A stretch of DNA of 63,602 bases, the filler included, from Hausera hauseri (lineage: Eukaryota): assembly GCA_046269625.1 (NCBI GenBank). It is 10 parts of 10 records of this genome, joined end to end, with 100 filler letters (N's around TTAATTAATTAA, not from the genome) between each part and the next. Parts side by side here need not be neighbours in the genome. Positions count along the whole stretch, not along the records: positions 47,485 to 54,959 come from JBJURY010012789.1; positions 55,060 to 59,545 come from JBJURY010557896.1; 8 more parts are not named here. One strand, written 5' to 3'. Each line of letters opens with the position of its first letter. The first letter of the stretch is position 1. Below are positions 9,529-63,602 of the stretch, one piece after another. A model generated the notes under the pieces. That model saw nothing but the letters and a program-made list of their open reading frames with translations. It was not told the DNA's origin and searched no databases. Both the position numbers and the translations under genes were made by a program.

Positions 9529-9545
9529 TATACATATATATACAC

Positions 9546-25386: not shown

Positions 25387-25481
25387 TTACAAATTTTATA
25401 TTTGTTTTCGTGAATCAATATAATTTATTTTTTACATTTTAATATAAATATATGCGCTTCTTTACGGTATGACATTACGAC

Positions 25482-25821
25482 ATGTCCCATTTAATAGAAC
25501 TCATTTGTTTATACCACTCGTTCGACGGTCTCAGGAGTCACCTTTACAATTTTTATCGACCTTTACGTGATGCACGATACTGTTCTCCCGAAGAGATACA
25601 CCGGCGTGCTGAGAGAATTGGAAGGCACTGGAACCTTATCTACGACATAAGAAACAGGTTGTTGGTGACATGGACACGATATTCGGTCTGATTTTTAGCA
25701 CCTATTGGAAATTGGCAAATTACTGTGTTGGATGATAATCCACATCAAATACGGTTTGTGGAAGATTTTGTCAAATGTGATTCCAACATTCCAACGTGGC
25801 AATCGGTGGATCAGATTTGCT
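25482..25821 (+). pseudogene. ORFan homologous to 26302-26748, copy A
   Basis: LYHSFDGLRSHLYN..RPL..ARY shared with copy B. Confidence 0.7.
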
Positions 25822-25958
25822 NNNNNNNNNNNNNNNNNNNNNNNNNNNNNNNNNNNNNNNNNNNNTTAATTAATTAANNNNNNNNNNNNNNNNNNNNNNN
25901 NNNNNNNNNNNNNNNNNNNNNCTTTTCTCTTTCAATGTAGAGATTGTTGTAGGTGAGC

Positions 25959-26223
25959 GGACAACACTATTTCCCACCTTCCTGACTATAACGATTGTCT
26001 TGAGTAATAAGAAAATTTGCGATAACCGAAAATGAATGTTAATTTATTTTTATTTTTTATTAATAATTTTTATATTATTATTATTTCATTATTAAATTTC
26101 TTTTCATTTAAATTACCCACATATCTAAATATGTGGAATTTTTGAAAATATTGTGACCAAGTTTTCGGACAACAACATTTCCCACCTACCTCACTATAAT
26201 GATTGTTTTGAGTAATTAGAAAA
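25959..26223. repeat. two imperfect direct repeats of about 55 bp (25959-26014, 26168-26223)
   Basis: ggacaac..atttcccacct.cct.actataa.gattgt.ttgagtaat occurs twice. Confidence 0.75.
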
Positions 26224-26301
26224 CAAAGTTTTATTCTTTTATATCGTGCAATTACTACTACTACTACTACTACTACTACTAATGTTACTAAATCATTCGA
26301 G

Positions 26302-26748
26302 TCAATTCGGATTACACAAACCGCACGGATTAGCCAATTCCAAAGGAGAAGATTGATCGCGACCATCGGAATTAACCGTATTGCAATATTGCTTTAAGCC
26401 CATTTCATCTGCTGACTGCCACATAGGAATGTAATCCGTCTGATTACCACCAACACCACGTTTGACAAAATCGGTCATAAATTGTACTTGACAAGGATTA
26501 CCGTCCAACGTCATTTTTCTATATGTGCGAAAAATCTTACGGAATAAAAATTCCATATCACCAGCAACATGCTTCATATGGGGTAGATAAGGTTCGCGTG
26601 CCCTCCAATTATGCTCACCAAGTAGGAGTAGCTCTTCCGAAGGCAAATATCGAGCATTGTCTAGAGGTCGATCGAGATTGTACAAGTGGTTCCTGAGACC
26701 GTCGAATGAGTGGTATAAGCTAATGAGTTGTGTCGTCAAGTGAGACAT
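26302..26748 (-). CDS. hypothetical protein of the pPolB element (148 aa)
   Basis: intact ORF with a syntenic homolog in contig 3. Confidence 0.7.
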   Translation of the reverse strand: MSHLTTQLISLYHSFDGLRNHLYNLDRPLDNARYLPSEELLLLGEHNWRAREPYLPHMKHVAGDMEFLFRKIFRTYRKMTLDGNPCQVQFMTDFVKRGVGGNQTDYIPMWQSADEMGLKQYCNTVNSDGRDQSSPLELANPCGLCNPN

Positions 26749-26859
26749 TGTATACTCTTATGGAACGCAAGAAGAAGAAGAAGCACATGTACTTATACTG
26801 CAATGTAGCTTGAACACACACACGCACAAAATAAAAACAAACACGTAGCAAAATTATAT

Positions 26860-27183
26860 ATTTATGCTGGGTTAAATACGGTCAATCAACTTTTACATTA
26901 CAATACAAAGCGAAGCAGTAAATACAAGTCCAATAAGGAAATTAATCCTCTATCGTTGCTGCCGTTTTCATCTCATTTTATCCTCAATACCTTTTACGAA
27001 CAGAGATCTGACTATCAATTCGATATATTCACGCCTGCTCACTATTTTCCTTTTTGTGAGTTCACATAAAAACTGTACATCAAACACGTATCCCGTCATT
27101 ATGTCATCGGTCAATTTCTTAATTTCAATTTTAATGTACTGCTCAATTTGATTAGTATTAGTAGAAATAGGGGAAACAAACAT
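26860..27183 (-). pseudogene. small ORFan with C-terminal hydrophobic helix, copy B (frameshift near 26968)
   Basis: KLTDDIMTGYVFDV..SRREYIELIVRSLF; downstream DNA nearly identical to 25314-25385. Confidence 0.65.
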
Positions 27184-27313
27184 TTATAACAGAGTATAGT
27201 TTATGTTTAATGTTTAATTTTACGCGTTTATTTTATTTATAATTTTAAATGTTGTTAATTTGTTTAAATTTAGAAATGTAAGCAATATCCCATGTACTGC
27301 GTCTCGCGCGTAC

Positions 27314-30300: not shown

Positions 30301-31158
30301 ATTTAAGGTGTACATTGATGGAAATTCAGAGAAACGAGCCGCAGCTTGTACAAAGTTCGAAAAGGACTACTACAAGTTGAAAAATAATTCTCTCTACGGC
30401 AAAACAGTAAAGAACCTCAAAAAATGACTCAATATGCACCTATGTAACAGCGGAAAGCGGCTGGTTACGTAGACCAGCGAGGCTCAGTTCAGGCGGTCAA
30501 TGCACATTGCCGATGGATTGGTTGCAGTGTTGTCAAACCGGGAAGAAGTCGTACTGGACAGACCAAGCTATATAGGACAAGTGGTATTAGACCTGAGCAA
30601 GTTGCGAATGTACGAGCTCCGGTATCGCGGCCTGGCACGCTACCGGCAAATGTTCGACGGCCGCGAGATCAGTATCGTTGCCGGTGACACAAACAGCCTT
30701 TTTTGAGCTGAGAAACGTCAATCGCTACCAACTGATCCGGCAAATGATGGCAGATGGACTACTTGACACATCCAATTCCTCACAAAATCATCTGCTATAT
30801 AGCAACGACATGAGGAACAAAATCGGCTGCTTCAAGGATGAAAGCGAAGGCCGTGTTCAGTATCAAGAATGGATATTCCTACGCCCAAAGTGCTACAGTC
30901 TCCTGACGGACTGTGGACCGAAAATGCGCGCAAAAGGCTTTCAGCTGGCCCAGACAAAAATCGACCACGGTGGTTATCGCTGTATCTACGAAGAAGGAGG
31001 ACAATCAAAGGCTGTTGTGTCTCAAACGATCATCCAATCGACTGAGCACCAGCTGTATACGGTAACGAATAAAAAGTCGCTTTATCATGCAATGATGATA
31101 AGCGTAAGTGGGTGGGGCGAAATAAGAGGTGGGCCTAGGGACATTGGCTTTTGGAATA
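27314..31158 (+). pseudogene. protein-primed family B DNA polymerase polyprotein, Polinton-type, copy B (about 1280 codons, many stops and frameshifts)
   Basis: Cys/His repeats; SGW; OTU-like NDEYCFIYSILA...HYVAV; C2HC finger; ExoI YADIEA; HNH/EndoVII insert; ExoII FHNFQGYD; KGIFPY; ExoIII YLKLDV; IRGG; motif A DINNLYG; motif B KLKNNSLYGK; motif C GDTNS; LRPKCY. Confidence 0.94.
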
Positions 31159-31494
31159 AAATAACATACGTTTAGTGTTCACAAACAGATCAGTGCAAAA
31201 ATGCAATTCAGCCCAGTTAGATCATTGACATTTGTGATCTTTATTTTACATTCATCTACTGTACATGTTTTGTTATATATGATCAATAACGTATTTGTGC
31301 ACTAGTTTTTGTCTTCTGTTTTATAACAAGGAAATAGGACTCAGTTTGATTATCGAAAATAAATTAAAAATCTGATTTTACTCAAAAACTGAAATACTTT
31401 TCATTATTAATCTAAAACACAACACCAAAAACTCAAATAAATTTTATTATATATCATAAACTGACAACACCAAAAACTAAAAAGAGTGTGTCAA

Positions 31495-32060
31495 GTCAAT
31501 TCATTAAGGTAAACTTCCCCAACTTCCACACTGGAGATTTAATACCACGTAGCTCCATATATCCTTTCAGCTTCATTCACTGCTGTTTGTCCACTTGCAC
31601 TCACAATTTTCGCCACGTTGCCTTTAAGTAAAAGTGGGTATGTGTCCCGAATACCATTGGACAACATTAAATCATTGTCCACTTTCTTTATCGTTTCCTC
31701 AAATGCATCCAAGTCGCTGTCACCGATTTTCTTTGCAAACGAGTCATATTTTACTTGCTTCATTTTTATCGGTGTTGATAATTGCACTAGAATGGAGGTT
31801 CGCAGGAAGTGTATATTGTACCCGTTGTACACTATGGACTGTATGAGGGAATGAGGACCGTACGTGGACTCACTGTTGCTTCCTAAATACATATTAAGGT
31901 CAAAAAGTAAAAATGAAATGGACTTATTGCAACCTGGCGCAGTTGAACTGTCGGTGTTGTTGTTGTTTCTGCTGCAGCAGATGCTGTTGTTTTGTTGTGC
32001 AGACATTGTAGAAACAAAGAGAAATGAAAAAACATCCATATTTATACCAAATTTGCTCAA
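31495..32060 (-). CDS. hypothetical protein convergent with pPolB (3' frameshift)
   Basis: 173-aa ORF with a syntenic homolog at 20887-21084. Confidence 0.6.
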
Positions 32061-32414
32061 ATCGGTTTACTTTCGTTGTAAACAATGGACCAAATATGTA
32101 CAAACCGGTTTGCTTTAATTAGACAAACAGTGTACAAACGGTCAATAACACACGTGACGCCGTCTGTATTAAAAGTCATTCGTAATAAATGCACCTGCTG
32201 CTCTCGAAATCAATTCAGTATCAAGTACTTTCCATCATACTACCAAGTCGGAAATTGATAATCAATCAAAATTTTGCAATTGCTTCAGTTGATTAACTAT
32301 TTCCATGATGATTAATATTATTTCCTACCAATATTTATAGTTTTTGAACTATTCAACTAACCATTACGGCGTAACTTATTTACAGAAAAAAAAGAAAGAG
32401 AGAAATGCATTTAT

Positions 32415-32909
32415 TTATTTGCATGAAATGTAGTCAATACAAAGCCGTAGACATTTTTTGTAAGCATAATTTGGTCCATAATCACGATATGGACATATAA
32501 TGTTGTCAAGTACCATCGCCAGCGAGCTCTTTGATGTTAATGTTGAATACGTCGTCATTCACAACTCTGGAAACTGTGAATGGAGTTGTGTAAACCTTTG
32601 CCCGTCAATTTGATTTTTAATGTAAAATATTGTATTTTCAATGTCAAAACGATTACAAATATCTCCCATAATATACGTCGCACAAAAAATTGAATTGCCT
32701 TCGTACAAAAAAAGTCCGTGACGATGTTAAAAGAGAAATCCGTTTGTAATTTTCGCTTTTTCCGTCAGGTCATTCCACACAATACCGGGCTTGAATATGT
32801 AGAGAAGCGGTTTGAAAATGTTACCGACGTCCATAATGCATAATACCCTTATCAGGTACCGGGCATTATCATCTTGGAAAGCTTCAATATCTATAAATCC
32901 TGTCGCCAT
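32415..32909 (-). pseudogene. DEDD/DnaQ-like 3'-5' exonuclease
   Basis: GFIDIEAFQ ExoI-like start, YIFKP..W..L, (stop)HRHGL..YEG and a Cys-containing tail; pattern typical of small exonucleases in invertebrate endogenous DNA-virus elements. Confidence 0.6.
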
Positions 32910-32994
32910 TACTTATCTCTGATACAAAATCATTTTTTGTTTATAATACAAGCATAACAACTAACTAGTATTATTGTTATTATCATCACAATCA

Positions 32995-33399
32995 TTAAAC
33001 ATAGGTGGTTTTGTCCATATCACCAAAGACGAATTCTTTGCGTTCATTTCGTGTTGATTCATTGATACAAAACAATCCCCATTGTTCCGGTGACATTACA
33101 CTAAATTCCACTTCTTCGCATCGAAGAAAAACTATTTGTGCGATTGCACTACCTTTCGGAGAAGCATACGGTTCCCTGGATTGGTTTTCCAGAAACACCT
33201 TAATTTCATCACAAAAGTCTGAATCAATGACACCCCCGCCCACACCGTCAGTCCGAGCTTTGCCAATCCGCTTTTCGATAAAAGTTGACCGTAGTAACCG
33301 GATGAAATCGCTAATTAAATCTCAGTCGTTATACATTTGATTGTGCTGTCCGAAATTGTCGTATTGACATTGGAAAACACATCGTAGCCTGCACTGTTT
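32995..33399 (-). pseudogene. dut: dUTPase
   Basis: motifs SAGYDV, GYYGQLLSKSG, GGVIDSDF, IAQIVF and R..FVFG; one stop and one frameshift. Confidence 0.9.
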
Positions 33400-38764: not shown

Positions 38765-39289
38765 GAACATTTGTTTAATACCCTTATGCAATATAATAGC
38801 TTGTGTTGAAGCTCTAGTAATAAAAGGATCTGGCAGAACACATTGTTTTCTTGAGAAGGACNNNNNNNNNNNNNNNNNNNNNNNNNNNNNNNNNNNNNNN
38901 NNNNNTTAATTAATTAANNNNNNNNNNNNNNNNNNNNNNNNNNNNNNNNNNNNNNNNNNNNAGAAACAAAACTGCTAAAAGGAACAGTGTCTGTGAACTA
39001 TTGAATTTTTGTGTGAACAAGACGTTGAATCTTATCAATATTTTTGTTCTCTGCTGTATTTGCTGAAAGTGATTGTCTTGCTTTGTTTGGAGTGTTGTTT
39101 GATAGTCTGCTGAGGTGATTTGGATGAATTTAAATTTTGATTTGACATGTCAGCAGGTTGAGAATTATTTGGTATGTCGATTAGCATAGTTTTTTGAATT
39201 GATGCAGGTTTTGGAGTAGTAGGTTGTCGTGTAGGTAGAATAGAAGAAGAATGAAAGGAGTCAAGATAGGTTTGTTTAAACTCAGCTTA

Positions 39290-42200
39290 GGGATCCGGTG
39301 TATCATTAACGAAGAATGCAAGTTTCACTTTAGTTATGTGCATGTTTTGTTCTTTATCGTTTTTTAGTATCGTAACCGTGTGGGAGGTAACATTGAGGAC
39401 TTTAAATGGCCCGAAATAGTTTGGTTTGAATCCAAAAGGTGCAGGATTTTTAACCACACAAACTTTGCATTAAATATTGCATCAGGTAGGTATGTTTTTT
39501 CACCATGTATTATTCTACAGAAACAGTCCTGACTTATCTGAACAAAGTGATTTCGTTCAGACCTAATAGTTTCGTCAGTTGGCGTGTTATTTAAATCGAT
39601 AAGTTCAAAGAATGCACGAATTGTGGTACCAAAAAGTGCTTCAGCAGGTGCGCAACCAGTAGTAGTAGACGGCGTGTTGCACCACCCGAGTAAAACGAAA
39701 TGAAGGATGGTTGTCCAGTTCGTATGAGTTTCGGCCAGAATTTTAGGGACATTTTAAGTGTGCGGTGAAAGCGTTCCAATAAGCCATTCGACTGAGGGTG
39801 ATATGGAGTTGTGTGTATGTGATTTATGCCCAGTCGATTAACTAAAGGCTTGAATAGGTTCGATTCAAATTTGGGACCTTGGTCTGTAATTATATAGCGG
39901 GATGAACCAAACCGGCTAATCCAAATTCTTATAAATGCATCGGCTATTGAATCTATATTGAGGGATCGCAACGGAACGGCTTCAGGCCAACGAGACGCGC
40001 GGTCCATCATTGTTAAGATGAATTGGTGGCCGTTATCGGAAGGTAATGAGCCGATGATATCTAAGTGAACTGATTCAAAACGGGACGTACGGGGAAAATG
40101 GAATAAAGGTGGCTTGAGATGCTTAGTTACCTTGAATTTTTGACAAGCCGCGCATTGCTTAACCCAATTCTGTACGTCAAACCTCATTGATGGCCATGTT
40201 ACGTGACGTTTGAGGAGTCGGAATGTAGCCTTGGAACCTGGGTGATGCAAAGAATAAACATGTTGAAATGCAGTTTGTTGGAGAGAAGGCGCCAAAATTG
40301 GCAAATGTTGCCCAGGTGTCGACGTGCCCATGGCTATTCCATCGATGATTTGTGCAGATTTGTACTGTTTAAGAGTTTCAGCGGAAGGTGAATTTTGGAT
40401 TAATTGTTCCTTAGAGAATATTGGTGTGGCACTAATAGCACCAACTGGTCGTGATAAGAAATCGGCTATTAAATTGTCTGTGTCAGAAATATGGCGAATT
40501 TTAAAATTGGATGTTGACAGATATGATATATGGCGTTTTTGTCGAAGTGATAGTTGTTTCATGTTCATTACATGAACAAGAGGTTGGTTGTCCGTTTGAA
40601 TGGTAAAGGAACGAGCGACAAGCAAATGTGAAAAATGTTTCAGAGCTAAAACAATGGCCAGAAGTTCTCTATCGAAGGTGGGATAACGGTGCTTTTATGA
40701 CTGCAGCTTACGTGGAAAAAATTCTAACGGCTCATTTATACCTTAAGATATTTGATGAAGAAGCGCTCCTACCGCTATGGTTTATACGTCGGTTGATAAG
40801 ATGAGGTCAGCATCAGGTTTTGGGTAAGCTAAAATCTCAATCGTTTTAAGCTTGTCGCGGGGTTCATCGAACTGGTTAACAAGTTCTGGTGTCCAATATA
40901 TAAGCTTTTCTTCGGCCTTGCTCCTAGCTGAGCGAAAGGAGCAGTTAACTGGCTACAGTGTGGGACGCATTTATGGAAAAAATGTGAAGTCCCAAGAAAA
41001 CTACGCATGTCAGTAGTGGTTTTGGGTAGTTCGGTGTTTCGTGTTTGATGAATTTTATCAGGCTGTGGACTGTGACCGTCAGGTGTGATGACGTGGCCAA
41101 GGAAATTGACCTTTTCTGGAAGAAAGAACACTTAGAAAAGTTCACTTGAAAATTGTAGTTGTGTAAGCGTTGGAAAACCAGTCTGAGATGTTCTTCGTGT
41201 CGTTTGGGCGATGCCAATGCGACTAGTACGTCATCAATGCACGAATATGCAAATGGCAAGCCTGAAAGAACTGAATCAATGTGCCGTTGAAAAGTTTGTG
41301 CTGAGTTCTTTAAACCGAACGACATTAATGCGTATTCGAAGAGACTAAAAGGTGTTAAAATGGCCTTTTTTGAATGTCTTCGGGTGCTAAAGGTATTTGG
41401 TGGTAGGCTTTTTTAAGATCTATGGTTGAATAAATCATAGTTTTGTTCAAAGATTGTAATATATCCCTAATGAGAGATAACGGATAAGCATCCATGGTGG
41501 TGAAGTTATTAAGTTGTCGATAGTCACCGCATGGGCGGAATGTGCCATCTTTCTTTTGAACGACGTGGAGTAATGATGCTTACGGTGATTTCGAGCAATT
41601 TATAATGTTAGCTTGCTCGAGTGCAGAGAATTCTGCTTCGACTGCCTGTCGATTGGGTGGTGAAAGTGGGAGGAGTTTTTGCCTAACGGGCCTAGGATTT
41701 TCTGTTATTATATGATGAAACGTCGTGTTAGCCGGTCGAAATTCTGGGTCTTTTTTATTGTAAGTAAACAAGATTTGGTTAAATATTGTTGCATTTCTTG
41801 GCTAGGTGTAATAAAGGCTATTGTTGCTATGGCAGTGAACTGATTGGATAGAAACGCTAGAAATCGAATCGCCTAAATCGTCCTTGTCAACGCCTTTTGT
41901 TCATTTATTACAGGACTGCAACAAAAACGTTGGTTTATTTATATTGATATTAATGACGGTCTTATTTACGTTCTTTTAATATCGATTTTGTAGGTGAGAT
42001 AGGTTGCATGATCGGTTGGTTATTTGTAGAGGTCGGTTTTGTTGAATTGCTTTTGATGATCCGACATTGTCAACAATCTACAAGGAGGTTGTAGAAAGAT
42101 AAGAAATCAGACCGAAGTATTGGTGATTGTGTGTCGGCAACGATAAATGTCCAATTAAAAATGTCTGAGAATCGTGGTAAAGTGAATGAAACCTTCGACG

Positions 42201-43002
42201 TGCTGAATACACGTAAAGCTTGGCAGTTTGATGTGTACAGTTTAGTAGAAGTCGGTGAGGTAATTGATATTTTTGTGGGCATTGGTAGAAGAGATACTGC
42301 CGCTCCGGAATCTATTATAAAGTTAATTGGTTGATTAGGCTTGGTGGAAATGAAGGCATTTAATGTGAAGACAACATTCGTGCGGCTGATACAATGACGA
42401 GGATAGCCTTTACCAGTATGCGCTGGAACATTTGGCGGCTTTGACAGTTTTTTTGGATGGGCAGATTTTGGGAGTCAGAAGAATTACTAGGGCATTTTTT
42501 AGGTCGGTTGGAAAACGTGCAACCGTTGATGCAATTTTGGGCTTTATTAATGAACCTATTGTGGTAAATGCAAACAATGTCAGATTTTTGAAAAGAGGAT
42601 GTAAAGAATTTGCACCCCAAGCAACATTTGCTGGATTTATTCTTGAATTTAGTGTGATAATAGAACACCATGCGTCAAGTAGGAGACCTAGCGGATTTTG
42701 ATTTGTTCGATGAATCACGGCTGTGATTAGTTGTGAATTGTACTCGTCGCGGCATGGATAAATTTTCCAGTTTAAACGTTAAAGCAGAAATGACTTTGTG
42801 TATTGCCGTGTTTTCAGCCTGTAGAGCGTTTATTTGGTTATTCAGCGCTACGATTTCTGTATTGGATGGTGTCACAGACAGTTGTAATGTGGCTGCAACA
42901 ATTGGAATATGGAGTGTATTTCATATTTCGTAGCTTTTATCAGCCAGTTGTTATAGTTTTTCTAACGTAGCGGTTAGTAAACTACGGTTAGTAAAACGCG
43001 TA
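39290..43002 (-). mobile_element. decayed Ty3/Gypsy LTR retrotransposon internal region (gag end, PR, RT, RNase H, IN)
   Basis: CxxH..C..C gag motifs, IIDSGAAVS, RPCGDYR, MSFGLKN, CIDDVL, ADFLSR, H2C2, HLDIIG, TDQG, YHPQSNGLLERFH, YFGPF. Confidence 0.92.
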
Positions 43003-47220: not shown

Positions 47221-49604
47221 ATACAGTAAACAATTAGAAGAGTAGGAGGAAAATGTATGTTCTGCACAGCCCCACTCCTGGGGGAGGGTAATCGATAAAT
47301 CAATTTTGCACATACCAAGCGATAGTGCCCATGGTGTACTATCGATCGGTAGTGTGCTAGGCGGCGATGCCGTTCAAATCGATANNNNNNNNNNNNNNNN
47401 NNNNNNNNNNNNNNNNNNNNNNNNNNNNTTAATTAATTAANNNNNNNNNNNNNNNNNNNNNNNNNNNNNNNNNNNNNNNNNNNNATTAAAGTTTTAATTT
47501 AAATCTAAAAATGTTTCTAATTTAAATTCAAAATTTCTGTTCTTCATTATATCCTCACAGTACAAATATATCGTTCAGCAAGAACTGATTTTCCTTCGCT
47601 TTTGATGTGATATAACTGATCGATCTAAAAAATAACTAACTGGTGTGAAAACAAAAATAAATGACTTACTTCGAACTGCTCCTGCAACTCCGAACTACCT
47701 GAAAAAACAACAATAAAAACATAGAGTGAATTAAAATTCACTTACTGTAATGGATTGATAAATAATTTTAATGGTGACTTGATTTATGAAGTTGACTTTG
47801 GTAAAATTTCGTTTGCTTTGTACAATTAAAGGTGATAATATTATACTATATATAGCTGACTGAACATAAACGTTTTAGAAAAAGTGCTTCGATTGTATTT
47901 TATGTTTACGAGTAAGCGTGTCTTGATTTTAATATATTATTTTTACCTAGGTTATCATTTACATAATTATATTTTCTGTGATTGTTATTTTACCTTATTT
48001 CTTAAGTAAAACAAAGTAAGTAACTAATTGGTGTGGATCTTCTACCGTCCAGGTCGAACCAACCTGACGAAAACCTCTAAGTAATTTGAGTGCTAAATAA
48101 AACATTAAGGTCAATTCGATAAATCCAAGCCCCACAGGCGACTATTGCCCAACATACCACATATAAGCTAGTGTTAGGTAAGATTAACAGCTCTATCACC
48201 TCCTCATCTGAGTAACGATACCTCACTAACTACGTAACCTTGTTCCCTCCACTAATTTTATTAACGCTTTTATTTATAAGTCTCTCCCAACGCAAATTAG
48301 TGAAGAATTGAACAAAACATCTATTGAATACTTACACTCGAAATTATGCATTTGATCCGTCAGTTTTCCGAATTTTCAACCATCATTCTGCTCGTTTACT
48401 TACCTGAATTAATTTGATTCAACCCTCAGAAATGTCGATTAATTTACAATGGAAATACATACACAACAACATTATTGAAAAAAGTACCGAATTTTGTAAT
48501 TACTTCATCGTCCCTATGAAACAATAATCCATATTTCATTCCGCATGTTTTAAGAATTGACAATCTCTGCCAGCAGTATGGTTCGAAAACTTGATATCCG
48601 AATAAGTCAGTTTAAAATTCTCAATTGGAATGGTTACAAAGTTTGAATGATGCCGAAACTTTCGTTTACATCGAAAGAAAAAATATAATCGCAAAACATT
48701 TGAAAGTAGTTATGTTCACGTGACGTGCGAAAAAGTGCCGGGTTTTGGTGTTCCCGATTTACCGACCTTTTTTTCTTAAATTTCAACATTTTAAAACTAA
48801 AAATGTTCTGAAAAGCCAGACATATTGTTTCGATTGATTCAATTTCATTCTAGATCTCAGACTTGCTTTAAAAACACTGACGTATTTTGAAAATTTTCAT
48901 TCCGTTTCAATTTTGTTATTCGGAAGAGTTAACATACACATTGCATTTGCTTTTGATTCTAAACCCCATATTGGAGTTCATTGTGATGCGAAAACCGGGG
49001 TGCTGAGGTCTTATTTCTTCACAGTAGATCTAAGCGTCCTAAAGGTTATTTATTTATTTTCAATTTCACAGAGAATGCTCATTACAAACCTGGAACCAAC
49101 AGAAATATTAGTGATGTAACTGATAATTAGACGAATCCATTGTACTTGGACATAACATGAAAGACAAACTGCAAATGTGACTTTAGTAAAATATTTGTTG
49201 AAAAAAGAAAGGAAAATTTGATAAAATTTTAAAATTGTCTAAATGTTAGAGGGAAATTGAAGAAATGTAAAATTACGTAACATTTAGAAGCCAATATTGT
49301 ATAATCCTGGCTTTGTTTACAAACATACTTTCACATTATTAATCAGCTAAACATTTTGTACTTGTAGAATCTGTAAAACTCTGACTAGCAGTAAGGTGCC
49401 TTTCGTTGTGAGAATTTCAAATATTTAAATTTATCTCAATCTTTTCAAAAAACTAAATCAAAGACACGTTCGTTAAAATATACAAGGGTTTTTTATTTTT
49501 TCAAATTTTATTTAAATTATCAACCAATAATATTCGAGGAAATTAAAATTAATTTAAATAAAATTACCATTTTGAGAGAATCATTAAACAAGAATATCAA
49601 ATCA

Positions 49605-49904
49605 ATGAATTCAAAAGATATTAGAGAAGTTGAAGATGATATATATGAAATGTATGACAAAATTGATTCGTTTAAACCGACCATTCCAATTATCGCCACG
49701 AATCAATATCTTTTAGAAGGAGGAATGCATTTGGAAAACAAACGAATTGTAACACTCATGTCGTTGGTTGCAGAATGTCTTGTAAACAACATTGTAACTG
49801 AAGTAAAAAGAAGTATAAAGCAATCGGGAGAAAATGAAAAGAATTTTACAAAACAGCATTTTGATGATGCTGTATTTAATTTGGGTTTGAATATATACAA
49901 ATAA
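49605..49904 (+). CDS. TAF10: TAF10-like histone-fold TFIID subunit (divergent, intronless)
   Basis: DSFKPTIP..ATNQYL..GG..NKRIVTLMSLVAE..GLNI parallels TAF10 EDYTPTIP..VT.YYL..AG..DPRIIRLISLAAQ..GINV. Confidence 0.7.
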   Translation: MNSKDIREVEDDIYEMYDKIDSFKPTIPIIATNQYLLEGGMHLENKRIVTLMSLVAECLVNNIVTEVKRSIKQSGENEKNFTKQHFDDAVFNLGLNIYK

Positions 49905-50878: not shown

Positions 50879-52778
50879 AAAAATAAAACAAAAAGTCGAT
50901 CTAAACAACAAAACAACACAATATATCGACATTTTAAAATTAGAGCTTTATTTGCCAGTTTAAAATAGATTTAAATTAAATTTCAAACAATACAAAACAA
51001 CAAACTGCACAGACATTATTGTAATTACATATACATATATATAATCCATTTTGTTTGCAATAAAAAGCCGTTTTCTCGGTATAGCCGCTATTTCTATTTA
51101 ATAAGCGAGGCAAATATTACAAAGGCCTAAAGCATTTTGCGATATGGATATTTCAAATTTTATTTCACCCGATCGGTTTAAATTATTGTTATACATGTTG
51201 TATTTTAGTTATGTCACATTTTCTTATTTCATGATTGAAATGAATATTAGAGTTAATATTTAATTTTTTAATGTAAGATTTGTCGAAGTCTGTTTCAGTT
51301 TTAAGTAATAATTTGAGTAATTTAAAAAATAAATTTAACTAGTTAAATAATATTTATATTTAAATCTAAAATTTTCTGCTAATTTTAAAGGTTTTAAATG
51401 ATGTTTAAAATCAATTTTACTTGATTTTGTAAGATTTCCTTTTGCTTCTAAAGGCTGATAATTAGTCCAATGAAACATGTTTTTACATTCCATAATTTAT
51501 TAAAATTAAATTTAGAAAGCGTAAAACATGATCAAAATGAATTATTTTTCCTAAATCATTTATTGAATATTGATTGCCGTATTTTGTAGATAAATGATAT
51601 TTAATGTCACAACCTAGAAATAACATTGTGATATGATTTCCTTTAAATCCTCGAATAGATTTATATATTGCATGTAATAATAAATATCTTATTTATAATA
51701 ATAATTATTATTATTCTGTTAACGCAAACGTCTATATTAATTTATTCGTTGTCGATTATTCTTTCCCTATTCTTTGTGACATTCTAAAATTTTAACTTTT
51801 TGCCCTCGCAGAATAATTTCTCCGCTATTTTCACAATATTCTTTTCCCTGGATTGCAATTTTTTTATTTTCTTGTGCATATTATTTCTTGTATTCAGAAA
51901 AAGCTGCCCGTCTAAATGAAGGGAGAGATTAAAGGGAAAATATTGACGTAATCAGTGGTTCTCAAGTACTATATGATAACGATTTTGCAAATGAACACAT
52001 TGAATGTTCTTGCTGACTTTCCGAAATTTAATGTCTCGGTTTGGATTATCTTATCACCATGAATATTTGATGGACATAAAAATTCATACATGGGAGTAAA
52101 GTCGACAGATTTCGTTTGAAAATGCGGGAGACAGTCCGTAGAATTAATATCCGAATTTATTTAATGAAATATAATTCTAATTTATCCAAAAATATAGTAC
52201 CTCACAAAATGCATGAGGGTGTGCGTGTGTGTATATAGAACGTAAGTATATAGTTTGTATGCAAAATATATGACATCTCTTACTTCCAGTTGCAACAATT
52301 TAATAAAATTTTGAAAAGCTTATCTTTCTAACACAATAAAATTATTTACATGAGAAAACTTGTATAATATTCGACGCTGAATTATTTTCATTACTAAAAT
52401 GATAATTGAATATATAAGCATAATTTACTTTTGTTGTACAACATAAATGTAGAACTATGTTCATTTATTTTGGAAATCGTGAACAACATCTTTACAAACG
52501 TAATTTTGAATGTCATAATTTTAAAACAAATCAATCTCGAAATGTAATTTTGTCCAAATGATTCACAGATCCACCTGATGATAGCTAATAAAGCCGAAAC
52601 ATGGTATAGGAAAAATAAACAAATGAACTTTATTCCACCTTCTTATTTTAATACAATTAATTCATTAAATTTTTAATTAAAACAAATTTTAATATTTATA
52701 ATAATTAACTAAAATTTAAATAAAAAAGTTAAAATAAAAAGTAAATTAAAGTAATTAAATTTTTTGTGTTGTGTTCGG

Positions 52779-53684
52779 AAAATTGCTCAAAATCTTGGTC
52801 TGACTTTGAGTGAAGTTATTTCCAAAACGTTTAGCAATGGAGAAACAAGCGTCGAAATAAAGGAATCCGTTAGAGGAGATGACGTGTTCATTGTGCAAAC
52901 TGGCAGCGGAAACATAAATGATTCATTGATGGAACTACTATTAATGATCAGCGCTTGCAAAATTTCATCTGCTCAAAGAATAACAGCAATAATTCCTTGT
53001 TTCCCATATTCACGACAAGATAGAAAAGATAAATACCGAGTCCCAATATCTGCAAAGCTAGTAGCCAACATGATAACAGCTGCTGGAGCTGACCACGTAA
53101 TTACCATGGACCTCCATGCAAGTCAGATTCAAGGATTTTTTGATATTCCCGTTGACAATCTTTACTCTGAATTGGCAATTGTAAAATGGATTAAGGAAAA
53201 CATTCGAGACTATGAACAGTGTGTTATTGTCAGTCCCGATGCTGGTGGAGCTAAACGAGTTACTTCTGTTGCAGATAAGTTGGGTGTTGACTTTGCTCTA
53301 ATTCACAAAGAAAGAAAAAAGGCTAATGAAGTCGATAATATGGTGTTGGTCGGTGATGTGACGGATAAAGTTGCTATTCTTGTTGATGATATGATTGATA
53401 CGTGTGGAACAATAGTTTTTGCAGTTGATAAATTAATAGAAGCTGGTTCTAAAGAGGTTTACGCAATATGTTGTCACGGTGTGTTTTCCGGACCTGCAGT
53501 TAGCCGAATTCAAAATTCAAAATTTAAATCTGTAATTGTCACAAACACAATAGATCAAACTGAAGTCATGAAACAAACAAATAAAGTACAATGCATCGAT
53601 ATCAGTAGAATCTTATCTGAGGCAATTCAACGAACCCACAATGGAGAATCAGTATCGTTTTTATATTCACACATGCCATTTTAA
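52779..53684 (+). CDS. PRPS: ribose-phosphate pyrophosphokinase, intronless, lacking the first ~17 codons and ATG
   Basis: [53 protein letters not shown]. Confidence 0.93.
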
Positions 53685-54399: not shown

Positions 54400-54903
54400 G
54401 TTAAATTTGTGGTAAATGGTCATATAACATCGGAAATGTACATTGACCTTCTGGAGAATAGATTCCTGCCTGCATTGAAGCAAAGGAATTTCAGTCATAA
54501 AGCCATCTTCCAGCAAGGTGGAGCACCTGCGTAAACTTTTTTCACTACCACAGAATTTCTCAATAACCACTTCCCAAACAGATGGGTTGGGAAATTCGGG
54601 CCAACGCACTGGCCACTACGCAACCCGGATTTAACCTCCAGCGATAATGCCTTGTGGGGTATTGTCAGACAGCATATCCACACAGGTCACCCACAAACGC
54701 ATGATGTATTGGAGAAATCAATTAAATCTCCATTCCAAAAGGTGAAGCAAGGCATGCTATTGAAAATCCATGAAAGGTCTTGGCACAGAATTACACTTTG
54801 TGTCGCACTTGATGGTAAACAAGTCGACCCCCTTGATAAATAAATTAGTATTATGTACTTTTGCTGGTTTTCCTAATCGCTAGGGACGTTTCAAACATCC
54901 TAT
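54400..54903 (+). mobile_element. Tc1/mariner (rosa/DD41D-like) transposase C-terminal relic
   Basis: FQQGGAPA, FPNRWVG..GPTHWPLRNPDLTSSDNALWG; TIR-like end aaacatcctata. Confidence 0.7.
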
Positions 54904-55767
54904 ACGTACCACTAATAATTGTATAATAACTGTATAATTTTATTAACAATGCCGCATTGNNNNNNNNNNNNNNNNNNNNNNNNNNNNNNNNNNNNNNNNN
55001 NNNTTAATTAATTAANNNNNNNNNNNNNNNNNNNNNNNNNNNNNNNNNNNNNNNNNNNNACAAAAGAAGAAGCTACACGTAAAGCCAAAACAGAACAATG
55101 CGTAGGACAAATCATGGGAGTCCGAGACGCTGAACTATATTTTGAGTATTTGCAAACGGACGAAGATAAAGAACAATACGATATAAATTTAGTACCACTA
55201 GGCGAAGCAGCCACTAAAGGTCCAAAACCAAAACGCCCAGTAGGCAGACCTAGAAAAGTGCGAGAAGAAGTGGATTAAAATGGAGAGTTAATTAGAGAAT
55301 TGAGGCAGATGTCGATTCCAACCCTTAGCACCCAAAATGAGGAATTAAGTGAGTTAATGAAAAATTTAATACGAATTGTGAATTATTCTAGTTTTAGAGG
55401 GGATATGTTGGATGATAAAGAAAAGATAATTTTCGATTCAGCCAAAATGATGAGAAGTTTACGTTTCAAACTATCAAAAAGTAACTTAACCGACGAGACA
55501 GTAATAAAAAAGATCATGGTAGAAAACACGAATGAGGAATTGAGAAAAGCATTGCTATACTTAGCTATCAAAATAAATCCTAATAGAGAAAGTGAAATCA
55601 ATCGAGCTATAAGCTTAGCACGTAGAGCAGCAAAAAGAATGCCCTGCGATGTAAATTTGGCAAGACTATTTGACAAGGAAGAAGACAAACGAAACAACAA
55701 TAAACTCGACGATATGATACGTAGCCTGACTACGTCAGATGTTGGAGGTAGGAAGAATGAATCAAAC

Positions 55768-57250
55768 TGGCTGATTAGCTTGATCACCTTGTTGATGCTA
55801 ATAAAGCATATGGGCGCTGTAACCGTCTATGATTGCGATAAGTTTAAATTAGGACAGAGATATTCCTTAATGGATCTAGAAGTATGCGAGGATGCCAGAC
55901 CGCACAAACTAGAAACAAGAGAGAAAAGTTACTTCCTGTATCAACAAGAATTGGTATCCTAGACGGAATGGAGTGCATGCTGAAACGGTCACGTAGTATT
56001 TTTTACTGTGGGTTGGTCCGTGGACATTCATCTATAATCAAACAAACGACTCCATTGATTCCAATGAACTTAGAGCGACAACACTGCAAACAAGCTAAGG
56101 AAACTGGAAGAATACAGTGGGACAGCATGCAATTAAAAATGCAACCCGGGAAAATAATTAGAGAATATAAAGTTGTAGCCGGAAGACTAGATATGCACAG
56201 CGGACATTGTAATGGAGCAGAATACGATACCGGAAAAGTATTAGAATCAAACGTCGTGGTTGTGGACTTCTATGAATCAGAAATGCGATCACAAAAGGTA
56301 ATGTTCCATAGTGTCACTAAGTTATACACTGAGAATCAAAAATGTCATTTACAAGACGGAACATGTGCTTTTAGAAGTTCGGTTATAATATGGGAACCTC
56401 CCTCTGGAAGAAGCTGTAATTTCATCAAAATTAAGGAGCTAAAGTTTAATGAAACTACCGGAAAACAATACGTGGATAAATCATAAACTAACTCAAGGAC
56501 ACGCGAAGATGTATCATAACACCCTACGCCTACTATATTAATCTCAGATCCGCATGGACTAAAATTTATAAAAAGGGGATGATGATTTGTTGCGATGTAG
56601 TAATGTTCGCCACAAACTATGAAGCATTCTTCGTAGCCGAAACAGAAATAAACGCAAAAACCTACAAATTGGAAACGCAGGATGTTCGGATTGAAGATTA
56701 TCTGCAAGATAAACACGATTACTTCTACTATAAAGGACAAGTTGGAATAACGGAATTATATTATAAAATAATAATGAATGACGGCAAATTAGATACCGAA
56801 ATTATGAGAACTAAAATGGATAATAAATTTTAAGACATCTTGTCGAAAGGTATATACCGGCCGAAGGAAATCGAGGCTTTCAGACAATTCATTGCCTTTC
56901 CACGACAACGAACACATGAGCTAAATCGAACAATGGCATCTGTAGTAGACGACACACGATATCAGGCTAAATGGGAATCATTACTTGGCGTAAACCACTA
57001 TCAGAGTGTGACAACCGAAATACTCTACAAAATCTGGGGAAGATTTTTAATTTTTGGGCAAGCCGCATCAGGATTTTTAGCGATATATTTTTTGATACAA
57101 ATAATTAAGGCAGTTATCCAAGCCGTAATAAACGGATACAAAATATTTCCACTAACCGGATTTTTATGTAAAATTCTGACTGCAATCATAACGCCTTTTG
57201 GAAAATTCCTAAAAGCAGACGAAGAGAGCAGATGGAAATCGAACGTAGAA
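55768..57250 (+). pseudogene. chuvirus-like (class III-type) envelope glycoprotein
   Basis: signal sequence then VYDC..YSLMDLEVC..LYQ, C.....S.FYCG, C..A..TG, GHCNG.EY, C.LQDGTC..IIWE..C, GIY..EI..F..FP, and membrane-proximal/TM block WGRFLIFGQAASGFLAIYFLIQIIKAVI..ING. Confidence 0.75.
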
Positions 57251-57839
57251 CGCCATGTCGGTTACTGTAATCGTAAACGAAGAGGGAGACCGATATTTCT
57301 ACGGAAGCGGAGGTCTACAAATCCGAATGCACGAAGAAATAATTCAGATGATGACAAGCCTAAGGGAGGAGAAGCATTCTCAGGGATGAATAGACACAGG
57401 GTGTACTCTGTAGTTAAAGCGCCATTACCCATGTTACACCCTACCGCTCCATTCTACGAAGATTGTGACAAGCGATTTATGAGCTCATATCAGACAGAAA
57501 TTTATAAAAGGACCATTAATGTAGAAGACCCTTATGAAGGAACGAAACGATACGGAATTTTACGGAAAATGTGTTACCGCCAATCCGCGGATGATCCTAA
57601 GATGATATACTCACCAAGGGAACCTAAACATATGGAAACTAGATCGTCAGTTTGGGACAACCCAAGATTAAAAACCTTCCAACATACAGAAATACATACT
57701 AACAATCGGGAGCCACTAATTAGTACTCATGAAATGGAAGAATTGCACGTAGAAAATAACGAATTATATCCAACCGAAAATTAAGACAGTTGTCGGAAAA
57801 CATAGTATCCACCCCAGAATATCAGTGACTAAACGTTAG

Positions 57840-59545
57840 AAAGTAGCATCGAACTGTTTTGGAACCGTGATCGAAGGAAGACCCTTCGCCAAAATTATTA
57901 TTGAGGAATAGGAAGTTTATGCGTTAATCGATACGGATTCCGAGATATCTTACATCAAAAACGATTCAATACCTCAAACGCTAAGAGGACAATTATATCC
58001 GCCGTATACGAAAGATGCAGGCAGTACGGGTGCTTTTGGCCAAACGTCGAAACCCATGTTTAAATGGAACCCAGAAGTCCAGTCACTTGGACAAATATTT
58101 CGACATGAATTTGCAATCATGGAACAATTAACTGACGATGTCGTTCTAGGATGAGATTTATTGAAAAGGCTACCAAATATAGCAATTGACTTACAAACTG
58201 GAAAGCTAATTGAGATTAGATCAAAAAGGGGCGTAAAAAACGCTAAGGATAGAAAATTTGGAGAAGTATGGATACCAGTAGACGAGAATATCCCACCAAG
58301 AACGGAAATAATAATTTAAGCACAAATTCATAAAGATGACGATCAGCCAGTATACTTTGAACCAAAGGAAACGTTAAATCCAAATCTAACACTTAGTAAC
58401 GTACTTACGAGAGTACACTCCGGTCGTGTACCAATTTGAATAGCGAACAATGCACAAACTCCTATCAAACTCCATGCTTATACTACTCTAGGAGATACGT
58501 ATAGAGTATCGTGGATAAATATCGAAGAGAAACCTTATAAATACGCCGAATTTCCACCTCACGTCGAAACCAAGTTTTCACCCGAGTCTTATTGCCGATT
58601 TTATGAACTATTATGCCGCTATAAATTGATTATTGCTAAGGACGAAGAAGATATTGGTAGAACAAAAGCGTTAAAATTAATTATTCCGCTCAAGAAGAAG
58701 CCGGGTTCAAATGATGAAATAGATCTGGAGGATCAGAAGATGCCAAAATGGTATCCTCCACCACATTCATTAAGACCCGAAATAACGAAAGAAGTTAAAC
58801 GAATGCTTAAGGCAGATATAATTAGACTCAGTTACAGATCCTGGTACTCATCTACCTTTTGGTTAATAAGAAAGGAACTACGAAGCACCGATTTTGTATC
58901 GATTACAGATCTCTAAATAATCTTATGATGAAAGACTCCTTCCCATTGCCCTCAGTAAAAGAGGCTTTAGATAGACCCTCAGGAGCAAAATGGTTTACCA
59001 CTCTGGACTTACAATCCGGATATTGGCAAGTGGAAATAGAGAACGAAGACCGTTATAAGGCAGCATTTAATACTCACGATGCCATTTACGCATTTAACGT
59101 CATGCCGTTCGGTATTACTACCGGACAAGCCATATTTACAAGAATGATGAACAAAATGTTAATGGGACTGGATCATGCCTTTGCAAACTTAGTTGATGTG
59201 ATGATAGCATCGAGAACAGAAGAAGAACACTTAAAGGATATTAAACATACGCTGATGCGTTTGGCACAAGCCGGATTGAAATTAAATCCAAAGAAATGAA
59301 AATGGGCTCAAAATGCAGTATCCTACATTGGCTATATAGTTGGAGAAGGAGGATCGAAACCAGACAACTCGTTGTTGAATAAAATATCGGATTGCATGGA
59401 ACCACAAAATCAGAAAGAGTTGAGACACTGGCTAGGACTTTGTGGATATTACGCAACCTACGTACCAGATAATTCAAAAATTAATGCACCTCTATACCGT
59501 TTACTTAAAAAGGGAATTAAATGGAAATGGACAGACGTTGAGCAA
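57840..59545 (+). mobile_element. Gypsy-type pol pseudogene: aspartic protease, dUTPase-like spacer, RT
   Basis: ALIDTDSEISYI, VVLG*DLL, RFCIDYRSLN, DSFPLP, LDLQSGYWQ, VMPFGI, degenerate YxDD (NLVDV), GLKLNPKK, LGLCGYY. Confidence 0.9.
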
Positions 59546-59645: not shown

Positions 59646-60215
59646 CACAAAAGAATCAGTGATGTTGTTCGATTTTAGCCACTGTTGGTGGAATTGGAGC
59701 CATGGTTTGCTGGAGTTGTTTTCGTTGAGAAAAATTCCAACACAAGGTAAATTTAACGAACCTCGTGACTGTTGGGATTGTGGCAAACGATAGACGTTGC
59801 CTGTATTTGTGGATTTATCATCCGAGAAGGATGAATTTGGATCCAATCCACGTCGGAGACGAAAATGGAGCATGAGATAGATGACTGAACGTTCATGGCA
59901 TACGGAAGACAAGAGGAAGTCTGAAGGATGTATTATAAGCCCTTGATATGTGAAATAGAAATCAGAAGTGTTGTATGATGAGGACAAAACATTATATAAG
60001 AGATGTGCTGTGTGGTTGAGTGGAGCACTTATGGTTGTTACATGCTGATCATTGCTGAAGACAAGGAATGATAGTTTCAGCGAAATGATTCCAGGGGAAT
60101 GGTGAAATGCATGAGGAGTTTGGGTTGTTTCCTTCTGTGCTAACAAGAGGTACGGGCGTGCAGCCGGGGTAGTGGTGGCAAGTGATGATTGGGATAAATG
60201 GATATCCAAAGACAT
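59646..60215 (-). CDS. ubiquitin-like domain fused to a probable Gypsy Gag N-terminus (3' end cut by contig edge)
   Basis: UBL pattern ending FYFTYQG...VIYLMLHFRLRRG, then a linker and LP..F....PWL....WL..NNITD. Confidence 0.55.
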
Positions 60216-60399
60216 TGAGCTTAAAACCCTTTAAAATGAACACTGGTGTTAGCTATGAAAGATTTGTATGAGCGCAGAAAATGGTCGCACTGGTGGGCGC
60301 AAACTAGTGAAAAACATTTCACCCACCTGTGACCGAATGTTGTTTTGCTGAACGCAGTGACAGCATCTTCATTATGACCAAACATTGACGGTGTGCTTG

Positions 60400-60628
60400 T
60401 AACATGGAATGAATGTGCTGAACAGTTTTCGCCGGGACCTAATGCTGTTAAATTGAAATGGGCACCATGTGAACTGATCTGTCTTTGCGGTAAGAGGGTA
60501 TTAGTATCGGCAATATCGGAGGATATTAGTGGATCCAGACCTTTCCTGTTCAAGGCCATAGCTCGTACTGAATAACTAGTTGATTCACTGAGATTGTCCA
60601 GCGTTAGTCGTTCTGCCTTGAACGTCAA
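60400..60628 (-). pseudogene. fibronectin type III domain fragment(s)
   Basis: LTLDNLSESTSYSVRAMALNRKG, then a second partial FNLTALGPGE. Confidence 0.65.
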
Positions 60629-62058
60629 AAACTGGCGTAGGTTTTCTACTCATAACATCTATACTATTTCGTCTCGAATCACGAACAATAATAACCGATT
60701 CTTTTATCATATTCGTTTTCTTTGCATTCTCAAAGATAGCAGCTTCGATCTTTTTTCTATCGCTTTTGTTTAAATGGAAGGAAATGAAACTACTGGATAA
60801 CCAATCACTCAGAAGCCGTATCACATTCACAAAATTATCCTCAAGAGATCGTGTACCATCCAGTGACGAAATGATCACAGTTTGAACTGTGAAAACGAAA
60901 TTGTCTGGTGAACCTTTTCCAATGATGAGAATTAACTCTATCCGATTCCAGATATTGTAGAATTAATTCAATTATCGAATAACAGATATGTCTGGTTACC
61001 TTTAGAACTGCTTTAAGACCCCACAACACAGTCTGATAGATGAAACTAAAGACGAGTTGGTTATTATCGGTACGTAGCCCAATTTCAAAGAGTTTTTTCA
61101 AATCATTCCAATTCCGATGACAAATGGACTCAACGATGAGATCATGGGATATGTCACTATACTCCTTCTTGGACTGAATTCCACCTTTTGTTTGTTCAAG
61201 ATGCTTACATACTCCAGCGATATCATCAGACATCAAAAGAACTGATTTGATTTCTATCAACATAATCCGTTGACTTTTGGCGATCAAAACGCCGCTTGGA
61301 AAATCTCAGTGACCACCTTGAAGATACAATTAATTTCTGGCACGTTCTCAACACTTCGATTGTTTCACCAAGAATTTCATATTTCGTTTTCGTTTTTGGC
61401 AAATATTCCGTGAAAAGACCTTTTACGATCAATTCTACAGATGCGTTGAACGCTTAGCTTTCATAAATTGAGTATCAGTCAATCATCTTGGTTTAAATGT
61501 TATTTCATTGAAAATCTCAAGTGAATGGTAATAGTTTATGGTACAAACTGCACGTGTTGATCGATAATGTAAAACGTTAGATGTGGGGCCAATACTTACA
61601 TTAAATGTTTCAGCTTGAAGTACTTTACAATTTTTTTCAACATCCTTAACATCTTTTCTCGATCTAAAAATCCCTAACATTTTTTCTTAACTTCTACTTT
61701 CAACAGTCTCCACAACAGATAAACAGTATATACCTATCTTTCTCAATAACACCACAGCTGCGAAGTACTTCTAACCAGGCTTCGGGTACATTATGAGTAA
61801 CTCCAAATAAAAATGGACACAGAGCTATCTGTAACATTTTCTGTCGTTGCTCTTCAATGAACTGCCTAGAATTCCTCAGCCAAACAGAAATATAGTCACC
61901 TGAAGAATACAGGAAAAGCATGGATTTACTGATGAAGAGAAGTTCTCTGTGATAAAAATAAATCCGTGTCTCTTTTCCCGGACTGAGTGATGTCCCTACC
62001 TATCCTCCCCCCACACCTATCTTGTTTTTAATTTATTTCAACCATTTAATCAACACAG

Positions 62059-63602
62059 TCATAAATGTAAAACCCAGCAAACAACATCACAAATCAAAAG
62101 TTGCTGCACTGGTCTCTGATGCACCTGGAATTCTTTCAGCAAATTCACATGAAATGTCTGATGTTTTTTCACTCTGTCAGGCATAAACAGTTCATAAGTG
62201 ACCTTACCCACTTGTCGAGTTACTTCATATGGGCCATGCCACTTAGCAAGCAGCTTATTATCTGATGTTGGCAGCAGCAACAGGACCTGTTGGCCTGGTT
62301 TCAGGACCCTCTCTTTAGATTTCTGGTCATACCATCTTTTCTGGTTCTCTTGTGCTGTCTTCATGCTCTCCTGTGCCAGAGCCGTCATCTCCTCCAACCT
62401 CTGTCGCATCTTGACCACATACGCCACAATGTTGTCCTCCGCTGATTCAGGATGTTCCCAGTAGTCTTTCAGGAGGTCCAATGGTCCCCTCACTTGGCGT
62501 CCATAGAGCAGTTCAAATGGGGAAAATCCTGTTAATGCTTGTGGGACCTCTCTGTAGGCAAACAGCAAATAGGGCAACCACTGGTCCCAATCTGCTCCTG
62601 TAGTGGAAACAAACTTGCGTAGCATGTTCTTCAGAGTTTGGTTGTATCTCTCAACAAGCCCGTCCGTTTGAGGATGATAGGGGGTGGTCTTAATTCCCTT
62701 CACTCCTAACAATTTGTAGACTTGTTGTAAAAGCTTAGACATGAAGTTTGTTCCACAATCTGTCAAAACTTCTTTCGGTATCCCAACTCTGGAAAACAGT
62801 TGTATCAGACAGTTAGCAACATTCCTGGCTTTCACACACCTCAGGGGAAAAGCTTCAGGATACCGAGTTGCATAATCACATATAACTAGAATATACTTGT
62901 TGCCCGCTGAGCTTCTCTCCAAGGGACCCACTACATCCATCCCTATTCTCTCAAAAGGAGTACCAATGATTGGTAGGGGCTGAAGATGGGCCAGAGGAAT
63001 CTTCTTTCCTGAAGTGAGTTGACATTTAACACATGACTTACAGAAGTGTGATATATGACTATATATTCCTGGCCACACAAATCTTCTGGCAATTCTACAC
63101 AGCGTTTTCTGAAATCCCATATGTCCAGCCCATGGAACTGTGTGCCCCAGATCCATTACTCTCTCTCTGAACTGTTGTGGTAATGCTAAGGACTCCACAT
63201 CCCCTTTACACTGATACAAAATTCCCCTTTTTACTACATAAGTAGCATCATCAAGAAAACCTGCAGTGCCCCGTCTAGTTCCTTCCACCTCTATGACTTT
63301 ATCAAACCAACATTTTAAAGTTGGATCCTGCCTCTGAAGCTCACCCACATTAGCTGGAAGATTAACATCTAGCAGCTGAAACGGTTTAAAAGTGTTGTCT
63401 GTTTGCCTGGCTGAACCTCTTATTTTGTCCCTCCTTTTCTCAGCCTTGGGTTTATGAGGTTTAACTGGTCCCATTTCCCATACTTCCTCAAAAAATGGTA
63501 ACTCCCTCAAGTTGTTTTGTGCACTTTGAGCCCTCGTGGTGACCATGTTGTGCCCTGCAGATGCTACTCTACATGGGAACTCTATGGTTTGGGCTAAGAG
63601 AG
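62059..63602 (-). mobile_element. Gmr1-like Gypsy integrase ORF, intact
   Basis: HTVPWAGH..CKSCVKC, IGMDVVGP, LTDCGTNF, YHPQTDGLVE, WHGPY, FHVNLLK; preceded by VTTRAQ with no RNase H (ADxLSR) motif in the visible upstream sequence. Confidence 0.88.

Follow-up and report, generated by a model that had tools for sequence, protein, structure and literature searches.

Burro (GYPSM1) elements, giant Gypsy LTR retrotransposons of planarians, carry env in frame between gag and protease, according to the passages that describe them in Arkhipova and Yushenova 2019 (PMC6431247). The same passages report an ORF1 of 4,873 aa with ankyrin, BCL2, and the in-frame env, matches of this env to mononegavirus-type fusion glycoproteins, and very many copies, including decayed ones. 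In the sections drawn on here, Chary and Hayashi 2026 (PMC13524379) describe GAG-ENV-POL gypsy elements with an HSV/gB env in nematodes, bryozoans, and flatworms, count 114 gypsy elements with a Chuviridae-like glycoprotein, and find that the GAG-ENV-POL elements are not monophyletic. Their supplement includes six Schmidtea elements, which we infer from host and size to be Burro. In mosquitoes, Anakin elements of the BEL/Pao type are also described as carrying a chuvirus-like glycoprotein (Dezordi et al. 2020, PMC7642597, relevant passages). The whole word "Burro" does not occur in PMC8532177.

An env-before-pol layout in gypsy elements is thus already published (PMC6431247, PMC13524379) and is not new in kind. 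The original prediction for the locus described below had assumed that a chuvirus-type env with a gypsy pol, or an env before pol, was undescribed; this part of it falls, as the passages cited have both in print, while its reading of the order, the env type, the gypsy RT, and a polyprotein in the lineage stands. The assumption may be explained by Dezordi 2023 (PMC10084718), which in the part considered found no clear gypsy capture.

The window, i.e., the whole stretch of DNA that was analyzed (63,602 nt from Hausera hauseri), consists of ten contigs joined by N spacers. The ninth (55060-59545; 4,486 bases) carries, in this order, a leader, an internal signal, a glycoprotein, a membrane anchor, a tail of ~190 residues, a protease, and an RT. 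We put the probability at roughly 0.8 that this contig is a fragment of a dead Ty3/gypsy LTR retroelement, likely a Burro/GYPSM1 one, in which a chuvirus/gB-type env precedes protease and RT, and that its active ancestor likely encoded one Gag-(Bcl-2-like)-Env-PR-RT-RH-IN polyprotein. Within this explanation, the domain order and decay of the contig and the single open frame of intact relatives are observations. The contig is internal sequence that ends in the RT and includes none of gag, RNase H, integrase, and LTRs. A blastn search of the contig against the other nine contigs of the window gave no match. Gypsy integrases are present on two other contigs, 38962-43002 and 59646-63602, and it is not possible to assign them to the element on 55060-59545. 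The features of the contig are as follows:

55060..55278, + strand: 5′ leader, truncated by the contig end (translation); a premature stop ends this part, which is in the same frame as the next
55279..55767, + strand: predicted helical leader domain in the place of the relatives' Bcl-2-like domain; only ~55483-55581 matches relatives, weakly
55768..55827, + strand: internal signal sequence with cleavage predicted directly before YDC (hydropathy peak; relatives with signal and [YF]DC)
55828..57033, + strand: ectodomain of a chuvirus/gB-type (class III) fusion glycoprotein, broken (PF24664; tblastn with intact relatives)
57034..57213, + strand: membrane anchor, followed by a second hydrophobic helix that is weaker (hydropathy; 31-36% identity to relatives here)
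57214..57784, + strand: tail of ~190 residues, predicted to be cytoplasmic, with an xYP motif at 57764 (translation, hydropathy)
57840..58860, + strand: aspartic protease and protease-RT spacer with four premature stops (Pfam RVP; tblastn, 22-25% to P0006, P0007, and P0023)
58865..59545, + strand: Ty3/gypsy RT, truncated by the contig end (RVT_1; matches to solved Ty3 RT; 42-46% identity to the nearest RTs)

The copy on this contig is dead. At least nine premature stops interrupt it (55276, 56484, 56517, 56831, 57909, 58152, 58317, 58437, and 59297), frameshifts lie near 55950-55970, near 56570, and near 58860, and tblastn with intact relatives reveals that ~126 residues of the ectodomain are missing near 56818-56834. 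The catalytic motif of the protease is degenerate at 57930, as is the YxDD motif of the RT near 59198, which is kept in all seven intact relatives. The copy had been called decayed from the outset; the ectodomain gap and the degenerate protease and RT motifs had been overlooked.

Sequence from the stretch is contained in two public runs, with shares of 0.39 and 0.10; one of them may be the source sample. No RNA run is listed as containing it, which has no bearing on expression. At 80% likeness, 19,313 and 1,450 short contigs matched, with 30 of 30 bins covered in each run, pointing to a large repeat family, although this depth is no copy number. None of the matched contigs spans the whole contig. 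At the three internal frameshifts other copies have different lengths, and at two of the stops most of them have a different reading; we attribute these lesions to decay.

The elements of an envelope glycoprotein named in the original prediction (internal signal, ectodomain starting with YDC, TM helices, and a tail of about 190 aa) are all present by hydropathy, PF24664, and translation. Three of the nine pieces scanned match Pfam PF24664 (Monjiviricetes fusion glycoprotein), in order, with E values of 2.8e-11 (profile 71-227), 0.0019 (251-347), and 8.2e-20 (475-605). A signal-like hydrophobic peak is located at 55771 (Kyte-Doolittle 1.94), and the arrangement of a signal followed by [YF]DC is common to the contig and its relatives. 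The anchor peaks at 2.2 (57074), with a weaker peak of 1.71 at 57143; each of the seven relatives profiled has one strong hydrophobic peak after the ectodomain. PF24664 and hydropathy together identify an envelope of the gB/chuvirus type that has a signal and an anchor.

The env N-terminal piece is 23-31% identical to relatives; with it as query, a full HMMER search returned 22 proteins, 20 of which are PF24664 by Pfam or short pieces of the same region. P0015-P0017 and P0022 are short, the last without a Pfam match. P0013, a spurious repeat match with no Pfam family, was rejected. A word-based search, for which the env C-terminal piece served as query, turned up nothing among 623 candidates, and no relative was found in viral contigs scanned with three queries, nor in prokaryote genomes. 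A metagenome scan yielded five loci (L001-L005).

P0006 (2,855 aa), P0007 (2,627 aa), and P0023 (4,844 aa, with ankyrin repeats) encode env, protease(s), RT, RNase H, and integrase in one chain, and P0111, from the RT search (among 120 listed of 314 matches), has the same order. L001, L002, and L004 are single frames of 3,426, 3,703, and 2,693 codons with env and pol, the latter two starting with Gag. L003 has a gag-leader, one stop before the signal, and then env to its end; in L005, no frame reaches 150 codons. In total, env and RT share one stop-free frame in seven relatives (P0006, P0007, P0023, P0111, L001, L002, and L004). Relatives that reach far enough start with Gag, and all seven checked have zinc knuckles upstream of env, ~260-870 residues before it. 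P0003 breaks off shortly behind the anchor; the cluster to which P0023 belongs also contains P0010 and P0024, both split pieces. We note that these relatives are biased towards long open frames, as they were found by protein search. The (gag)-env-pol order and single polyprotein proposed for the lineage are borne out by the seven relatives, and none of the 11 relatives that run past the anchor into the protease shows the gag-pol-env order that had been named as the counterexample.

The relatives range from 2,627 to 4,844 aa. Burro elements exceed 30 kb, with an ORF near 4,900 aa, and P0023 shares with them the size class and the ankyrin repeats. Six of the seven intact relatives have a second signal-plus-anchor membrane protein after the integrase. 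No mention of such a protein was found in the portions consulted of the literature on Burro and GAG-ENV-POL elements, and Atlas searches with the post-integrase part of P0033 yielded no usable match.

One frame with a single stop (55276) covers 55060-55959 and includes 256 leader codons ahead of the YDC at 55828, in agreement with the at least 235 codons originally estimated. These 256 codons gave no Pfam match. A basic GRP-type motif lies at ~55231-55257, which we take to be AT-hook-like; GRP[KR] occurs upstream of env in 5/24 proteins scanned (P0001, P0006, P0008, P0010, and P0023). Compared by hhalign with the leaders of six relatives, the contig leader shows a weak match at the matching place (score 21.7, E 0.008, 33 columns). 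None of 200 shuffled controls scored as high, and relatives left out in turn score 30-114. HMMER and BLASTP found no match between the contig leader and the relatives' Bcl-2-like leaders, and the contig leader has no GGW motif. Modeled alone, it reaches a pLDDT of 44 with generic helical structure matches (best Z 5.3), and Atlas searches gave nothing usable for it.

The Bcl-2-like assignment comes from the relatives. Pfam Bcl-2 is found in four of their seven aligned leaders (best E 2.4e-5), and a model of the L003 leader domain (pLDDT 79) retrieves with Foldseek 44 listed rows, all of the Bcl-2 family (best E 0.004). Searching solved sequences with the leader profile gave many Bcl-2 rows, none better than E 0.24; the top row of that search is an unrelated capsid (E 0.019). 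A search with the leader alignment matched only L003's own protein. Several relatives, e.g., P0006, P0010, and P0014, have no Bcl-2-like domain adjoining env.

At the junction, env is directly upstream of pol and no gag fits between them; the original prediction had likewise placed the protease soon after the stop at 57784. The env frame is open for 316 codons up to this stop (57782-57784), with 24 stops in each of the other frames over the same span. From 57840, the protease frame is open except for in-frame stops (Pfam RVP with X at the stops, E 0.0014, below cut-off), placing the switch from env tail to protease between 57764 and ~57840. A dUTPase-like spacer is reported for Burro; in the contig, Pfam gave no match to one.

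In all 11 relatives that reach far enough, the protease is in frame behind the anchor, 148-391 residues on (P0014 by motif only), compared to ~298 codons in the contig. The xYP motif lies 32-70 residues before the protease motif without a frame change in 10 of the 11; in the contig it lies 55 codons before, immediately ahead of the stop. Because the relatives read through in frame and the distance from xYP to protease is conserved, the simplest reading of the switch is a decay frameshift. Judging by these relatives, the copy's own family probably had a single-frame env-pol fusion; the copy itself switches frame at the junction.

The same lineage and order could instead express Pol by programmed frameshifting or splicing after the env tail, in which case Env-Pol would not be an obligatory polyprotein. 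Compatible with this are the stop at 57782-57784, behind which the protease is in a different frame, and the absence of any length difference listed at 57700-57900 among seven indel rows of related contigs, three of which match the other frameshifts. Less Pol than Gag and Env would then be made, as in most LTR elements. However, the in-frame relatives and the conserved xYP distance argue against it, no canonical slippery heptamer is seen by eye at the stop, and an indel at the junction could be unlisted because depth there is among the lowest. We consider this explanation unlikely and favor the decay frameshift.

The RT matches RVT_1 (E 6.6e-26). Among solved proteins, the best 2 of 18 matches are Ty3 RT (E 6.8e-40 and 4.9e-39), ahead of foamy (3.6e-19) and MLV-type RTs (3.7e-14). 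The RT is therefore closest to Ty3/gypsy RTs, as had been proposed. The contig displays PR-RT, and the full PR-RT-RH-IN order is found in P0006, P0007, and P0023. A Pao-type pol, as in Anakin, was rejected by comparison with gypsy and solved RTs: the RT is 42-46% identical to gypsy-type RTs, with Ty3 as best match, unlike the Pao backbone given for Anakin in the passages cited above.

For the RT tree, 46 rows of 116 extracted were used; rows at least 66% identical to a kept row were removed (including P0027 and P0033), and P0024, P0026, and P0082 were dropped. The contig and all seven env-pol rows fall together, apart from the 38 other rows (SH-aLRT 78 / UFBoot 85, the supports quoted being two labels off the re-rooting path). 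In this RT phylogeny, of the kind suggested in the original prediction, support is moderate and the contig branch long (1.25). The contig lies outside six closer env-pol RTs and adjoins L004 without support (25/53). An earlier quick tree, which gave the contig a very long branch, placed it in a group of 15 rows that included the five env-pol rows known at that stage (SH-aLRT 94). The tree fits a shared history of env and RT and is no proof of it.

Compared to Burro as described in the cited passages, the shared features are a Gypsy pol, an env with a fusion-glycoprotein match, an apparently high copy number, and the decay of copies. An env in frame with the protease and a BCL2-like motif before env are seen in Burro and in relatives here; the contig matches the motif weakly and switches frame behind env. 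The contig copy differs in being a dead 4.5 kb fragment in which MATH, SUMO-like, BIR, ankyrin, and LTRs are not visible; the likeness is judged by eye and from description. The Platyhelminthes C1a GAG-ENV-POL elements (PMC13524379, sections used) have in common with the contig a Ty3/gypsy pol, a gB-like env related to the Chuviridae glycoprotein, and env before pol, but they are intact with known hosts and the contig copy is decayed. In the supplement rows viewed, the Schmidtea C1a env rows share their Cys and motif pattern with the contig and its relatives by eye, whereas the nematode env rows and one bryozoan row look unlike the contig env.

These comparisons bear on whether the contig instead belongs to a separately derived, nematode- or bryozoan-like GAG-ENV-POL errantivirus lineage that merely resembles Burro. 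Non-canonical nematode ERVs, which Sacco et al. are said to have described in 2022, reportedly have a continuous gag-env-pro-pol frame. From the sections of the sources used here, they share with the contig a Metavirus pol and a captured RNA-virus glycoprotein before pol, but the nematode env rows in the supplement look unlike the contig env. The published non-monophyly of GAG-ENV-POL elements (PMC13524379, same sections) and the position of the contig outside the six closer RTs leave some room for such a lineage. Against it are the unlike nematode and bryozoan rows, the motifs shared by the six Schmidtea rows, and the Bcl-2-like leader of P0001, the best env match, which together make a separate origin very unlikely.

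A chance junction of a 3′ env with the pol of another copy (tandem, nested, or deleted), or a misassembly, might be suspected in a decayed copy with an internal deletion, from a repeat family prone to chimeric assembly and with no matched contig spanning it, but is largely refuted and highly improbable: intact relatives have this order in a single open frame, neither an LTR-like repeat nor a gag was found at the env-pol junction within the contig, and one related contig connects the env tail, at 57743, with the start of the protease, at 57840, with a side of 43 letters. The best reading remains that the element is a fragment of a divergent, decayed, and apparently high-copy Burro-like GAG-ENV-POL errantivirus.

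We hypothesize that in an active element the Gag part would stay in the cytosol while the internal signal would direct the glycoprotein into the ER, where cleavage by signal peptidase ahead of YDC would leave the class III ectodomain lumenal. A single membrane anchor would return the chain to the cytosol, so that tail, PR, RT, RH, and IN would be cytosolic. Pol would then begin as the tail of Env, tethered only until released by the protease of the element. With the trimeric glycoprotein, particles would be able to move from cell to cell, and the Bcl-2-like domain may damp host cell death. We propose this topology and these cleavage steps because type I glycoproteins and retroelement polyproteins are processed in this way. 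The copy on the contig itself cannot perform them.

A bolder reading, which we hold to be doubtful, places the contig in a deep and very high-copy sister lineage of Burro whose host is not a flatworm. Members of that lineage would encode a virus-like polytopic polyprotein that combines a captured Bcl-2-like domain and a class III fusogen with up to six protease-like domains and, behind the integrase, a second membrane protein with its own signal and anchor. If so, the post-integrase membrane protein could be a receptor-binding partner of the fusogen.

As a dead copy with a published layout, the contig does not resolve any open question. What it contributes is a further, divergent member of a small group in which a fusion glycoprotein is placed within the Gag-Pol frame, and its relatives indicate that the same layout, often with a Bcl-2-like domain, recurs despite low sequence identity. 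The importance of the finding would be greater if the host is not a flatworm or if the relatives' post-integrase membrane protein is an entry factor.

Six of the seven intact env-pol relatives, in which glycoprotein and RT share one stop-free frame, carry a further in-frame signal, ectodomain and membrane anchor 3′ of integrase. These post-integrase units were found in metagenome loci (in each locus's own coordinates) and in proteins from database searches:

L001, ~8900-10279
L002, ~10000-11205
L004, ~7700-8518
Proteins P0006, P0007, P0023, P0027 and P0033

L001 has one more signal-ectodomain-anchor unit, placed between two proteases. From its motif, we take the post-integrase ectodomain of several relatives to be fibronectin-III-like. 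The unit had no match in Pfam or in Atlas, where the query was the post-integrase part of P0033.

Several protease-like domains per polyprotein, together with C2H2 zinc fingers and ankyrin repeats, were found in the set P0023, P0008, P0006 and P0019; P0023 has six protease-like Pfam stretches, some of them 3′ of integrase. A separate downstream ORF encodes an RNase T (DEDD) exonuclease domain in L001 (10617-12104, E = 1.4e-5) and L002 (12085-13470, E = 0.0011).

The other contigs of the window contain the following:

1-12523, near-complete invertebrate mitochondrial genome
12624-20398, large eukaryotic gene spread over several frames
20499-25821 and 25922-33399, decayed genes for DNA polymerase B of protein-primed type (PF03175 at E = 7e-5)
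38962-43002 and 62059-63602, gypsy-type pol fragments with integrase, on contigs separate from the env-RT element
49395-49904, TAF10 gene, apparently intronless
52755-53684, PRPP synthetase gene, apparently intronless

The large gene is presumably UBR4-like; its longest piece had no Pfam match. The two polymerase contigs, 73-78% alike, we assume to be Polinton-like. The AT-rich contig at 47485-54959 also bears, near 54400-54840, what we judge from its motif to be a Tc1/mariner-like remnant.

In the mitochondrial genome, COX1 and strand bias appear spider-like. This genome need not come from the same host as the retroelement. Database records assign the env-pol polyprotein P0007 to a Flavobacteriaceae MAG and annotate it as a hypothetical protein; its source is likely animal DNA misplaced into a bacterial bin.
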